IMG/VR virus record: IMGVR_UViG_3300048672_000512
Span: 32,001-96,000 of that record
Direction: 5' to 3' (one strand)
Origin: a virus
Length of the DNA: 64,000 nucleotides
Shown here one piece after another: positions 4,701 to 50,824 of the stretch. The notes under the pieces were generated by a model. The model did no database searches. It was not told the origin of the DNA and worked only from the letters and a program-made list of their open reading frames with translations. A program made the translations under genes and the position numbers. Every line of letters starts with the position of its first letter. The stretch's first letter is position 1.

Positions 4701-7700
4701 TGGCCTTGGTGATATGTCCATCTACTACACGGCTACCGAAAAGGAGAAGTGTGGTGCGGACTTTGAGAACAACCCCAAGAAGAAGATCATGTTCGGGATT
4801 GAAAATTCCATGAACACTGGTTTGAATCTTCAGTACTGCTTCCCAGGTCACACTCAGATCATGACAAGTAAGAACACTGTCATGTCGCTGAAAGACGTGT
4901 TTGAGAATCCAAACGTCACAGAAGTTCTGTCCTATGACCTGAAGAATCGCAAGATTGAAATCAAGCCAATTCTTCGCAAGATTCGTACGCGTGTCAAGGA
5001 AGTAGACAAGTACGTCAAGATAGGCGTCGTTGACAACAAGACGGGTGAGCAGCGGTCTATGGTGGTAACTGCAAACCATAAGATTTTCATGAAGGGCGGT
5101 GGCAAGCTGCGTGCAGATGAACTTACAGAAGGTGATCAGCTTATAACCTTTGGTGGTAATTTTGAACGCATGCGTTCAAATCCAGACACTGATGAAATCC
5201 TTTCGTCTGCTGACTGGTTAGAAGTGCGCAATCGTGCAATTGCGTGCCCTGAGTGTGGAGAGTTCATCACACCTCAGAGCAAGATGAAACACCTAGCAGT
5301 TGAGCACGGTATTGGCGTTGCTGAGTATCAAGCACTGCTTGCAACAAAGAGCAAAAACAGCAAGCACAACTGGAGTAGCGATCGAGAGAAGATGCTCAGT
5401 GCCGTTCTGAAAGGTCATGCAGCGCAAACACACGAGCAGCGTTCAGAATACACGTCCAAGGCATGGGCTAATGACGACGGTACGCGACGTCAGCGCATGT
5501 CAGAGCTTGCTACTGCACGTTGGCAAGATGAGGATTACAAGGAAGCTACTGGCAACGCAATATCTGAAGCGCTGTTGAAGATACCTGAAGTTCTTTCTGA
5601 AAACTCAAAGCGTAATTGGGCACGTCCTGAGTACCGTGAGCGGCTGCTGGAAGTATTCTCTTCGGAGGAACACAAGCAGAAGTTGCGAAACTCTACTACT
5701 GAGCGTCATGAGAACGATGCCAGTTTCACGTTGAAGTGCTTGGTTGGAATGGCTGAAGGCCGCATGTCGGAACCGTCAAGCTATGAACAGAGGGTTATTG
5801 ACCTGCAGATTGACAACTTGAAGTTTGTTGGAACCTCGCATGCTCACTGCACTATCACTTTGGAGATTGACGGAAAGCGTGTTCTGAAGAACCCAGATTT
5901 CATATCTGAAAACCACCTGGATGAAGACGGTCAACCTTTGCGCGTTGTTGAAGTAGTTGGTGGTCGCAAGTGGACAAATCGCTTTGCAGAGCACGACAAG
6001 AAACTGATTGCAGCATACAAGAATGCTGGCATCAAGTGCTTGGTAATTGGAGAAGAGGACTTTGCAGACCTGGAAACAGTAGAGGCAAAGTTGCAGTCCT
6101 TTGTAAACAATCACTATCTAACGGTTCGTTGGGTTCGCAACTACACGAACACGAATGTGATTGGTGACTTCAAGTACGACATTGAAGTTGAAGGTAACCA
6201 CAATTACTTTGCTCTTGCTGGAAACGAGGATCTAGCACGTCAGAGTCGAAAGGGCATTCCTGTTCTGGTAAGCAACTGCAGTAGGCTGATTAGGTGTGAG
6301 ACAGTGTGGACCCCAGGTGTTCTTGAACAGGGTAACGCACGTATCGGACGCCCAAATCTGAAAGTTGAGGAATCACGTCCTTACGTCTACTACGACTGGG
6401 TTGTGGCTCTGGATACGCTTGACGTCACGAAGATCAGCTACCTGATTTCAAAGACTATCTCTGCAGCAAAGTTCTCTGAAGCCGGAAACGAACGCTTTGA
6501 TGACATTGAAGTTCCGCCGCTGTTTCCCATGACTCTGGAAAACATCCAGAACATGAATTCGTGGCAGGAGACTCTTCCTGAGTACATCAGTGCCTATCAA
6601 GCATATCAGAAAGCGACAGAAGCCGAGTACGCGGACTATCGTGAACGTGCAAAGGACTACCTGTTTGACGCTGACGGAAAGCGCCGAATGGCTAAGGTGT
6701 CGCGCGCTGCTAACCCTCCTGGTTCTGCTCTTATTCGTCGAGTTCCTTACCACCCGGGTACGGAGCTTTATGGTCAGGATCAACTTGGACTTGTTCGCTA
6801 CGACCAATTCCTGCGTCAGCAGGGCTTCAACGTAGCAGCTGAAGACGATGAATTTGCAGAGGATAGTGGAGCGGAAACTCCAAGTGCAGATGGTGGTTCT
6901 AAGGGGCGCCTGTCTCCTGAAAAGCGCGAACAGCTTCTCAGGGAGAACGCACTCGTAGGTGGCATGTGGGCGCATACGGAATTTGGTGATGGTCAGATTG
7001 AAAACCTTTCAGTGTCTACGATCAAGGTTCGCCTTGATAGCAGCGGTGAGCTGGTTTCGGTTGATCGCTTGAACTGCTTCCTGATCACTCGTGCTGAGAC
7101 GTCGTCAAAGGACATTCGTACTCAGGTTCTGAAGTTGCGTGGTCAAGTTCCGCTTGATGCACCAATTGAGGTTCTTGAGTCTCAGTTGACACCTGCAAAG
7201 ATGAAGATGCTTGAACGTGAGCGTCGCCAAGCAGACCAGGATGCGTATCAGCAACAGGAAGAGGAACAGGCAAGCACGGAATTTGAATTCCGCTTCAGCA
7301 TTGTCAACGACTGGCTATCGATCATCCTTGTCAACTCTGACAATGACACTGCAGTATCCGTTGTTCAGCAGAGCGGCTTCAAGTATTCACCCGAGTACTT
7401 CTATGCTGAAATGCGAACACCTAAGATGCTGTTTGATCAGTTCCAAGCGTGGTTTGATGCAGGCCTTGAAATTCCCGCAGACTACACTGACCACCTTACT
7501 GAAGTCTACAAGCGCTTCAAGTCGAATGGCAAGAAGGGCGTTACTTCGTTCATGGGCATTGCTAAGGAGCTGGAGATTCGCAACTTCTACAAGGTTGAAT
7601 TCAAGCCTGATGCTGATGCAAATACGATTCGACCCTTCCCGCTTATTCAGGACGATATCCTGTACATAGCTCTTCCTTCAAAGGGCCATCCCGGTTCCAA

Positions 7701-8352: not shown

Positions 8353-8714
8353 TGGCTGCTAACATCTTTTCAAACCACGTACCTCGCCTTACGGCAAGAG
8401 GTCCGGTGCAGTACTTCGCTGTTTCAAGCACAGCAGCAGGAACCTACTATTTCAATCTGTCAGGCCTTCTGCGCCCTGGTATCACAAACATCGGTTTGGC
8501 TGTGCAGGCTATTGGTTCTCAGGTCACGGCTTCGCTTTCTCTTCAGGAACCGTCGCAACCTACTGAACCGACAGATGCAGACCTTGCATCGCTTGCGTGG
8601 TTTGCAACTACCCCGGTTGCAGCTGGTGGATATCAAGTGCTGAATCCGCCTTTTGCTAACTGGATCAAGCTTGTATTTGCAGGTGCGGGAACGGCTTACG
8701 TCGGTTCCATGTAA
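8352..8714 (+). CDS. hypothetical beta-rich protein (possible virion component)
   Basis: 120-aa A/G/T/S-rich ORF followed by a terminator. Confidence 0.55.
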   Translation: MAANIFSNHVPRLTARGPVQYFAVSSTAAGTYYFNLSGLLRPGITNIGLAVQAIGSQVTASLSLQEPSQPTEPTDADLASLAWFATTPVAAGGYQVLNPPFANWIKLVFAGAGTAYVGSM

Positions 8715-8719
8715 CAATC

Positions 8720-8754
8720 AAAAGCCCCTTGGTTTGTTTAGCTAAGGGGCTTTT
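8720..8754 (+). terminator. rho-independent terminator (first part of repeat copy A)
   Basis: AAAAGCCCCTT...AAGGGGCTTTT hairpin with T tail. Confidence 0.85.
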
Positions 8755-8755
8755 A

Positions 8756-8917
8756 TTTTGGCTGAAATCTATGGTTTCCGAAGCACGCTTCCAGTCTTCG
8801 ACTACACCGTGTTTCCTGCTGTTTTTTCATTACAGAATCGACCGGAAACAGAGGTTTCCGGGCCGAGACGTGTATCTGGGTGCAGAAGCGAAAAACCCAT
8901 GAAAATGGCGTGTTTTC
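8756..8917 (+). repeat. non-coding inverted repeat, copy A
   Basis: 8756-8796 (41 nt) and 8853-8898 (46 nt) are exact reverse complements of 50748-50788 and 50649-50694. Confidence 0.95.
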
Positions 8918-8984
8918 TGCGCTTTCTGGTGACACTGTGAATGCTAATTGTTAAGCACGAAATCTCACTGTAAAAGGCATACCA

Positions 8985-20551: not shown

Positions 20552-20615
20552 AACTGTGAATGCTTTTAGCAGTAATAACCACTTGCACAATTGAAACCAC
20601 TGAAAGGTAAACACC

Positions 20616-29653: not shown

Positions 29654-31030
29654 ATGGCAAAAGGCCGCGATATTGACGACGTTGAAGTCGGTGGTGGTAA
29701 GGGCAAGCGGGTCAAGCCGGAAGAGCTGGTAGACATTGTAAAGCTTCCGCCAAAGAGGTACATGACGTTGCGACTTATCGGTCAAGCATTCTTGTACGGC
29801 GGTCACTGGATCAAGACAAAGACGCGTGAGGGAAAGCCTACGCAGTTCTATACACCTTGCCTTGCATTCGATAGTGAAACTGGCAAGCATGATTCCACCA
29901 AAAAGTGCCCCTGGTGTGACCACGAGGGAGAAGAAGTTCGGTTTGCTGTAGACACTTGGACAAATGCAATCGTCCGTGACCTGCAAAAGAAGAAGCCTGC
30001 TGAAGTCGAAGAACCCTCTGAAGAAGAACTCGAAAGTGGTTTCAAGTCAAAGGATTCTGAGACTTGGACTCCGGTTCTCGCCTTCCGAATGGGAACATCG
30101 GTTGTTCGTTCAGTGAAAGAACTTCGTGAGCTGAACACTGTTGATACGGATGAAGGAACAAAAACCTTTGGCATGACTCACCCCAAATACGGGTGCGATA
30201 TTCAAGTCAAACACAATCCAGACGTTGCACCTGCACAGCAATATACAGTTCATAAGGGCGGTGAACCGACACCGCTCAAGCGGTCGGAGCGTGGTTACCT
30301 TATCTGGGATCTGTCTAACCTGCAGCCGGATATGGGAACCTACGAATCAGAACTGAAGGAATACACGCGTTGGGCTGAAAAGATGGGCCTGGCAGTTCCA
30401 AAGAAAAAGTCAAAGTCTGTGCCGGATGACGACGGCAGCACAGGAATGGACGACGATGACGAGGACGAAATGCCGCGCAAGAAAACCGCACCGGCAAAGA
30501 AGTCCCGCACAAGTCCACCGCCTGAAGATGATGACGAGGACGAAATGCCGCGCAAGAAAACCGCACCGGCAAAGAAGTCCCGCACAAGTCCACCGCCTGA
30601 AGATGATGACGATGACGAACCTGTCGTCAAACCAAAGCGCAAAGCTGCGCCTCCCCCTGATGACGATGATGACGATGATGAGCCGGTTGTTAGGAAAAAG
30701 TCTGCAGCCAGCAAACGCGTAGTTGAAGACGATGATGATGACGAGGATGAACCCGTTGTCAAGAAAAAGCCTGCAGCTAAAAAGTCTCGTTTCGAGGATG
30801 ACGAAGACGAAGATGAACCTGCAGTGAAACCGAAGCGAAAAGCGGCACCACCCCCTGATGACGATGACGAAGATGAAGAACCCGTTGTCAAGAAAAAACC
30901 AGCTGCCAAGAAACGCGTCGTTGAAGATGATGACGAAGACGAGGATGAACCTGCAGCACCTCGCAAAAAGGCAGCAGCAAAACCGGCAGCTAAGAAGTCT
31001 CGTTTCGATGACGATGACGACGAAGACTGA
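29654..31030 (+). CDS. single-stranded DNA-binding protein (gp32-like) with long charged tail
   Basis: OB-like N-domain with H..C...CPWC; acidic C-terminus; lies upstream of recA. Confidence 0.65.
   Translation: MAKGRDIDDVEVGGGKGKRVKPEELVDIVKLPPKRYMTLRLIGQAFLYGGHWIKTKTREGKPTQFYTPCLAFDSETGKHDSTKKCPWCDHEGEEVRFAVDTWTNAIVRDLQKKKPAEVEEPSEEELESGFKSKDSETWTPVLAFRMGTSVVRSVKELRELNTVDTDEGTKTFGMTHPKYGCDIQVKHNPDVAPAQQYTVHKGGEPTPLKRSERGYLIWDLSNLQPDMGTYESELKEYTRWAEKMGLAVPKKKSKSVPDDDGSTGMDDDDEDEMPRKKTAPAKKSRTSPPPEDDDEDEMPRKKTAPAKKSRTSPPPEDDDDDEPVVKPKRKAAPPPDDDDDDDEPVVRKKSAASKRVVEDDDDDEDEPVVKKKPAAKKSRFEDDEDEDEPAVKPKRKAAPPPDDDDEDEEPVVKKKPAAKKRVVEDDDEDEDEPAAPRKKAAAKPAAKKSRFDDDDDED
30455..30612 (+). repeat. 75-bp tandem repeat (~2.1 copies, coding)
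   Basis: GATGACGAGGACGAAATGCCG...CCTGAAGAT repeated with period 75 (DDEDEMPRKKTAPAKKSRTSPPPED). Confidence 0.9.
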
Positions 31031-31054
31031 CCTCTAAAAGTGAGTTGACAAACT

Positions 31055-41934: not shown

Positions 41935-41953
41935 GTTGCTTCTGCATTACAAA

Positions 41954-50599: not shown

Positions 50600-50624
50600 C
50601 ACCTAAAACAGCCAACTAAACAAA

Positions 50625-50788
50625 CCCCTGAAAACTGCGTGTTTTCAGGGGTTTTTCGCTTCTGCACCCAGATACACGTCTCGGCCCGGAAACCCCTGTT
50701 TCCTGCTGTTTTTTCATTACGAAAACGATCGGAAACAGGCACTAGGAGACTGGAAGCGTGCTTCGGAAACCATAGATTTCAGCCAAAA
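50625..50788 (-). repeat. non-coding inverted repeat, copy B
   Basis: Exact reverse-complement arms to 8756-8796 and 8853-8898. Confidence 0.95.
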
Positions 50789-50789
50789 G

Positions 50790-50824
50790 AAAAGCCCCGC
50801 AACCACAAGGTCCGGGGCTTTTTT
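50790..50824 (-). terminator. terminator (likely bidirectional), part of repeat copy B
   Basis: AAAAGCCCCG...CGGGGCTTTTTT. Confidence 0.85.

Follow-up and report, generated by a model that had tools for sequence, protein, structure and literature searches.

Inverted hairpin interiors in a dispersed terminator cassette of an uncultured freshwater jumbo phage

Two copies of a short intergenic repeat in a large virus genome lie in opposite orientations, but the segment between the arms of one of their hairpins reads the same way on the plus strand in both. A reading made from the sequence alone had described this arrangement and had offered several explanations for it: hairpin or cruciform sites processed by nicking or template switching, a tiny invertible regulatory switch, or a signal that must keep its polarity. 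It had cited the flip/flop isomers of parvovirus and poxvirus hairpin ends, and recombinase-driven switches, as known parallels. The locus raises the question of whether the hairpin interior still inverts, whether it was inverted in the past, or whether it is held in one direction. The window analysed here is a stretch of 64,000 nt, bases 32001-96000 of an IMG/VR virus record of 178,048 bp; coordinates refer to the window unless marked as genome (the whole record) or prefixed with a label.

The phage record and its terminator cassettes

The source of the record is a large uncultured freshwater jumbo phage. Its DNA polymerase shares only 31-37% identity with those of the jumbo phages Burkholderia BCSR5, Achromobacter Motura, BcepSaruman, Ralstonia phiRSL1 and PaBG, and the sequencing runs in which this sequence occurs are freshwater metagenomes. 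Although the record is classed as 'linear, 75% complete', it probably represents a complete genome of about 177.9 kb, either closed or terminally redundant, because its ends overlap by about 140 nt. These ends (genome 1-141 and 177907-178048, outside the window) are direct copies of one another except in a poly-G run, which counts 8 residues in one and 10 in the other. The genes fall into strand blocks: plus to about 82.6 kb of the genome, minus between 82.8 and 143.7 kb, and plus again from 144 kb. GC skew follows gene orientation, so the polarities of replication and transcription are inseparable by skew.

Other repeats were also observed. An approximately 80-nt cassette at window position 41952 and at genome 144881, 148880, 151626 and 162632 contains a sigma-70-like promoter (TTGACA, 18 nt, TAAACT) with GTAACA-type inverted repeats on its flanks; these cassettes are probably phage early promoters for the host RNA polymerase. 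Tandem repeats of 63-75 nt at 30446-31033 encode an acidic/lysine-rich repeat region within a 458-aa ORF (29654-31030).

The repeat under study is a dispersed, mosaic, intergenic and non-coding terminator cassette comprising a terminator (T0), a flank (F1), a 41-nt core hairpin, a further flank (F2) and a second hairpin (H2). Genome-wide searches located four copies of the core, A and B inside the window and C and D outside it, together with a partial copy, E:

Genome 40810, plus strand: core copy A
Genome 82697, plus strand: core copy B
Genome 157791-157831 (L011:2792-2832), plus strand: core copy C
Genome 131996-131957, minus strand: core copy D
Genome ~5446-5470 (about 5.4 kb; L013): partial copy E, consisting of T0 with just 10 nt of F1

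The modules of the two copies in the window are as follows:

8720-8759, plus strand: T0 of copy A, an intrinsic terminator with a 15-pair stem and then a T run, also found in the relative L009
8760-8797, plus strand: F1 of copy A, 38/38 identical to 50747-50784 on the opposite strand
8810-8850, plus strand: core hairpin of copy A, with arms TGTTTCC (8810-8816) and GGAAACA (8844-8850) and a 27-nt loop (8817-8843) in the sense direction
8853-8898, plus strand: F2 of copy A, 46/46 identical to 50649-50694 on the opposite strand
8901-8917, plus strand: H2 of copy A, a decayed hairpin in which the loop is flipped compared with the L009 orthologue and with copy B
50622-50654, unstranded: H2 of copy B, a two-way terminator hairpin with 14-bp arms and the 5-nt loop TGCGT, from the terminator scan
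50649-50694, minus strand: F2 of copy B, inverted
50697-50737, plus strand: core hairpin of copy B, loop at 50704-50730, the variant ending ACGAAAACGATC, with the same plus-strand reading as copy A
50747-50784, minus strand: F1 of copy B, inverted
50788-50824, unstranded: T0 of copy B, a two-way terminator at a convergent gene junction, its 15-nt interior flipped relative to copy E

Copy A separates a 120-aa gene from a 7-deazaguanine operon led by QueD, and its T0 ends the upstream plus-strand gene (stop at 8714). Copy B is situated at the convergent junction of a plus and a minus gene block. In the sense of the local genes, the order T0, F1, core, F2, H2 is found in copy A only, and copies B, C and D have H2 (or another hairpin), inverted F2, the core, and then inverted F1 or other sequence. 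Copy D has a near-identical inverted F2 on one side of the core and an older, diverged F2 with a terminator on the other. A group I intron (Rfam RF00028, 79 bits, E 4e-19; L004:2147-2458, minus strand, genome ~132554-132865) separates the tail-sheath ORF from one of 162 aa and lies just upstream of copy D. Clusters of the GTTTCC/GGAAAC hexamers (at least 3 within 60 nt) occur only in these cassettes and at one coding site.

The modules do not share a single pattern of relatedness. Across loci the cores pair as A with C (41/41, the flanks of C being inverted) and B with D (40/41, D being on the minus strand), while A and B share identical F1 and F2 modules, which adjoin a linker that has diverged. 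From this discordance it follows that the modules were homogenised separately, in tracts of about 40 nt and in either orientation. The loop variants also differ in context: the one ending ACAGAATCGACC (A and C; L011:2799-2825) precedes genes, and the one ending ACGAAAACGATC (B and D; L012:5465-5491) precedes strong terminators and folds more stably.

Inverted interiors in three hairpins

The coordinates given for the core and for a second hairpin were confirmed in both copies, as were the inverted flanks, the common plus-strand reading of the 27-nt core and the identity of the first 17 loop bases. The loops of A and B match at 23/27 positions when read directly, against 12/27 in the sense that the flanks predict, and at least 22 of 27 matches would be expected by chance with a probability of about 1e-9. 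The loop of copy C matches that of A at 27/27 positions directly, again with inverted flanks. In the interior-inversion test, the interior was the reverse complement of its homologue, with outer flanks 75-100% identical in the other orientation. Perfect inverted-repeat arms bound every flipped segment, of 7-9 bp at the core and 14 bp at H2; the arms of T0 are 5 bp (GCCCC/GGGGC), or 9 bp when the A/T runs are counted.

A second hairpin, at 8901-8917 and 50630-50646, had been said to behave in the same way, and by eye it does, with 15/17 matches directly versus 11/17 in the expected sense. A systematic genome-wide scan of repeated perfect-stem hairpins with homologous flanks extended this pattern to further comparisons. 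The 14-bp arms and flanks of H2 are identical and in the same orientation in B and C, but their loops, TGCGT and ACGCA, are exact reverse complements (0/5 directly, 5/5 as the reverse complement). The H2 loop is flipped in the same manner (ACGCA versus TGCGT) between copy A and its L009 orthologue. At T0, the 15-nt interiors of B and E match at 6/15 positions directly and at 14/15 as the reverse complement, between identical flanks in the same orientation. The remaining repeated hairpins in the genome, for example those of the early-promoter repeats, were concordant, without flips. Together these comparisons imply at least four inversion events in a family of five copies: at least one in the core, two in H2 and one in T0. 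The H2 and T0 loops occur in either polarity relative to transcription, as is expected of a neutral mutational process in two-way terminators.

A protein-anchored metagenome scan recovered one relative as DNA, the 3,775-bp metagenome contig L009, whose flanking protein is 93% identical. Its orthologous cassette is without F1 (a 35-nt gap). A comparison of core orientation in related phages had been proposed from the sequence, and in this one relative, at locus A, the core lies the same way as in copy A, matching it at 14/14 arm positions and 17/27 loop positions, including an unbroken TTTTTCATTA. With an identity of about 65% locally, an unbroken block of 10 nt does not significantly exceed the length that chance would give. 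A sample from a second freshwater study contains copy C in the same arrangement, and three further relatives are known as proteins only (P0003-P0005). No match to the cassette was obtained by blastn against 50,697 phage records, and exact and degenerate DNA patterns of the cassette gave no related match in the viral and genome contig sets (one pattern match, L010, was a chance match within a coding region). Protein-anchored scans of the viral and genome contig sets with the neighbouring genes found nothing.

No flipped junctions were present among the Logan contigs of the source sample, which are assembled contigs that low-frequency forms could escape. The junctions in these contigs are all accounted for by copies A-D, and their loose ends by B, C and D. 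A Logan unitig spans F1, the A-specific linker and the forward core. The unitig for the F1-linker/core junction of A (window 8768-8839) has a depth of 36, compared with 58-60 in the unique flanks, and this drop may represent micro-heterogeneity at the junction.

Origin of the inversions

We consider it likely that the pattern records past spacer inversions at short inverted repeats, which became fixed, and that gene conversion then acted on each module by itself, with no switch in operation. The relationships among the copies are observed directly in the sequences, and from them we infer both this mechanism and any function. During replication or recombination-dependent synthesis, a nascent strand would change its template on reaching one hairpin arm, copy the opposite strand, and return at the other arm; recombination between the arms would be an equivalent route. 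By either route the interior would become its own reverse complement and the arms and flanks would be unchanged, strand switching and breakage-rejoining having the same sequence product. Later short-tract gene conversion would homogenise each module separately with any alignable copy; the flanks would align as inverted repeats, and the cores, over 41-45 nt, as direct ones. Separate conversion of this kind would account for the 100% identity of F1 and F2 in A and B and for the different pairing of the cores, A with C and B with D. Given later conversion of the core in direct orientation, a single core flip before the split of the L009 lineage would suffice; an alternative history would be antiparallel conversion followed by a second flip.

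The hairpins differ in how closely they fit known cases of this kind. In yeast, spacer inversion by intermolecular template switching involves arms of at least 9 bp and spacers of 2-5 bp and is recurrent and reversible (PMC8604942), and inversions of RNA hairpin loops occur across life (PMC8794818). Non-coding hairpins of plastomes carry inversions of 5-50 bp between repeats of 11-24 bp (Kim & Lee 2005, cited in PMC12928735). H2 (14-bp arms, 5-nt loop) and T0 (9-bp arms with the A/T runs counted, 15-nt interior) are inside the documented size range of template switching. The core, with arms of 7-9 bp and a 27-nt spacer, has shorter arms and a longer spacer than most documented template-switch inversions; it is outside the yeast range (PMC8604942), and relative to the plastid range as cited in PMC12928735 its spacer is within and its arms are shorter.

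The predicted stabilities bear on the suggestion that these sites are processed as cruciforms. Folded as single-stranded DNA, H2 of copy B (-15 kcal/mol, z -6.9) and T0 of copy B (-13.5 kcal/mol, z -5.4) are strong hairpins, the core of B is moderate (-9.4 kcal/mol, z -4.3), and the core of A is weak (-4.9 kcal/mol, z -1.3). H2 of copy A, at -2.2 kcal/mol and z -0.3, is no longer a real hairpin. The inner-stem pairing of the loop differs between the two core variants by a register shift, without compensatory change, and so provides no evidence of covariation. A 7-bp stem with a 27-nt loop makes a poor cruciform. Among the processes named in the sequence-only reading, template switching at the hairpin arms is the best mechanism for the inversions, and cruciform processing is disfavoured by the 27-bp interior, the 7-bp arms and the weak folding of A.

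An apparent core flip could also be produced by modular shuffling. On this account a polar core never inverted, and recombination at the GTTTCC/GGAAAC hexamers, which are repeated, attached the flanks F1, F2-H2 and T0 to it in independent events and either way round, much as in the PeSL cassettes of T4-type phages. The cassette is indeed mosaic, with L009 having no F1 and E consisting of T0 and 10 nt; F2-like sequence borders the core of copy D on either side, the hexamer clusters are nearly confined to the cassettes, and PeSL cassettes mediate such shuffling (PMC2839356). However, copy A and the reverse complement of copy B have the same order and spacing of T0, F1, hairpin, F2 and H2, which would require two independent joins. 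In addition, the flips of H2 and T0 sit in otherwise identical sequence and hence are not module swaps, so that inversion of hairpin interiors is real in this family. For the core itself, we regard shuffling without inversion as unlikely.

Quite improbable, in our assessment, is an operating flip-flop, in which the cores, and perhaps other hairpins, would invert at appreciable frequency during every infection, by means of a host enzyme or with no recombinase at all, and so would place a strand-specific signal under the control of a tiny phase switch. The recurrence of inversions in the family, the tendency of the core variants to track what comes next (genes at A and C, terminators at B and D) and the lower depth of the A-junction unitig are in keeping with such a process, but the orientation is unchanged in the relative and in the second sample, and the contigs hold no flipped junction. 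Searches of the 178-kb record with PF00239, PF00589 and PF07508 (resolvase/invertase, tyrosine recombinase and large serine recombinase) gave no match, with positive controls, and the IS200-type Y1 transposase family PF01797, the sole HUH family searched, was also absent from it; a host enzyme might still supply such an activity. A 27-bp segment is far below the length needed for recombinase-mediated looping, the hairpin of A is weak, and a sigma-70 promoter is not predicted in the core. On balance the evidence speaks against the invertible switch that had been suggested from the sequence and for mutations that arose in the past and are now fixed. Nor does the suggested analogy with parvovirus and poxvirus ends hold, since the copies are internal, between genes at genome 40.8, 82.7, 132.0 and 157.8 kb, and a terminal-hairpin flip/flop is inapplicable to sites that are not genome ends. 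Finally, in a cassette that is repeated both ways, and at which short-read graphs break, an assembler might have picked the orientation of a loop in a palindromic repeat arbitrarily. We think this is almost certainly not the case because the arms, at 7-14 bp, are far shorter than the assembly k-mers, which cover arm, loop and unique linker, and because the arrangement agrees both with the unitig that runs through F1, the A-specific linker and the forward core and with L009, which comes from an independent metagenome and has the same arrangement at the orthologous site.

Core polarity and comparison with known systems

Spacer inversion followed by conversion would explain how the core came to its present orientation, and a separate matter is whether that orientation is maintained. 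The proposal that the inverted cores are strand-polar signals is compatible with the core. At each of the informative loci, A, C and D, the core is in the sense direction and runs the same way as the genes around it, and at B it follows a plus-strand gene. The perfect conservation of the arms in L009 and the match between loop variant and context also speak for a polar signal. The proposal does not extend to the second hairpin, whose loop takes either polarity. Against it, chance alone would give sense polarity at 3/3 loci with a probability of about 0.25, the conserved 10-nt block is not significant, and the promoter, Rfam and motif searches described below point to no specific function. That the core is kept in its orientation by selection, acting on a strand-specific signal in transcription or in RNA, is possible but weakly supported; we place it short of an even chance, and our best guess for the nature of such a signal is a transcript-level element between terminators. 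If the sense orientation is selected, it marks a one-way signal. A bolder version would make the 41-nt core a terminator-insulated, strand-specific control signal whose polarity is reset, after copying in the wrong orientation, by recombinase-free flipping at the 7-bp arms, a flipping that might also persist at low frequency. This we hold to be very improbable; if true, the core would be a minimal phase switch without an enzyme of its own.

No sigma-70 promoter was predicted in the cassette or core, and an Rfam search of the cassettes gave no match, the only hit being the unrelated group I intron. The TTTTTCATTA block did not recur upstream of other genes, and a crude search for k-mers enriched in upstream regions revealed no motif of late promoters in common with the core. 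A different motif was found close to copy A:

8934-8944, plus strand: ACTGTGAATGC motif, candidate phage promoter upstream of queD (start 8985), outside the flipped hairpins

This motif has four intergenic copies (window 8934-8944 and 20553-20563; genome 25572 and 165760), all 40-70 nt upstream of plus-strand genes, and is conserved in L009 (L009:609-618). The copy at 8934 is a more convincing candidate than the core for the promoter of the queD operon. Possible coding sequences in the cassette were also considered and rejected. An antisense mini-ORF from the core (MKKQQET...) is without a ribosome-binding site and, by eye, its frame is lost in A and L009; small sense ORFs across the cassette (e.g., 8729-8902) are broken by the 35-nt indel of L009.

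Several known systems resemble the phage cassette in part. Flip/flop at parvovirus and poxvirus ends likewise yields loops that are reverse-complementary between hairpin copies, but those hairpins are genome termini, nicked in every round of replication, whereas the phage sites lie between genes, in the interior of a contig with overlapping ends. The fimS, hin and cwpV switches share a segment between short inverted repeats that occurs in two orientations; unlike them, the phage case has no encoded recombinase, a segment of only 27 bp, an orientation that is fixed in the relative and no predicted promoter. The PeSL cassettes of T4-type phages (Arbiol et al. 2010, PMC2839356) bear a loose resemblance, being short, repeated, intergenic and mosaic, with terminator stem-loops and recombination between copies. 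In contrast, the cassette described here is without a detectable sigma-70-like promoter and has only 4-5 copies, in both orientations, and loop flips are not among the features described for PeSL (PMC2839356).

The small inversions of plastid genomes, as presented in the source cited above, also affect non-coding stem-loops downstream of genes, with loops found both ways and a spacer range that includes 27 nt. They differ from the phage case in genome type and in their longer arms, and in being comparisons between species at one locus, where those made here are mostly between paralogues. Template-switch spacer inversion is alike in its exact reverse-complement interior between perfect arms and in being recurrent and reversible over short evolutionary time with no dedicated enzyme; relative to its known cases, the inversions here stand out in that they are seen among dispersed paralogues of one terminator cassette in a phage, at three of its hairpins. 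If this origin is correct, inversion of hairpin interiors would be a frequent mode of mutation in phage regulatory cassettes, and short modules of a single cassette could undergo concerted evolution in opposite orientations. It would also serve as a warning that clusters of substitutions in terminator loops, and apparent "inverted cores", are not to be equated with switches or with independent point mutations. The flips of the phage cassette are a new instance of a known mutational class, not a new type of element.
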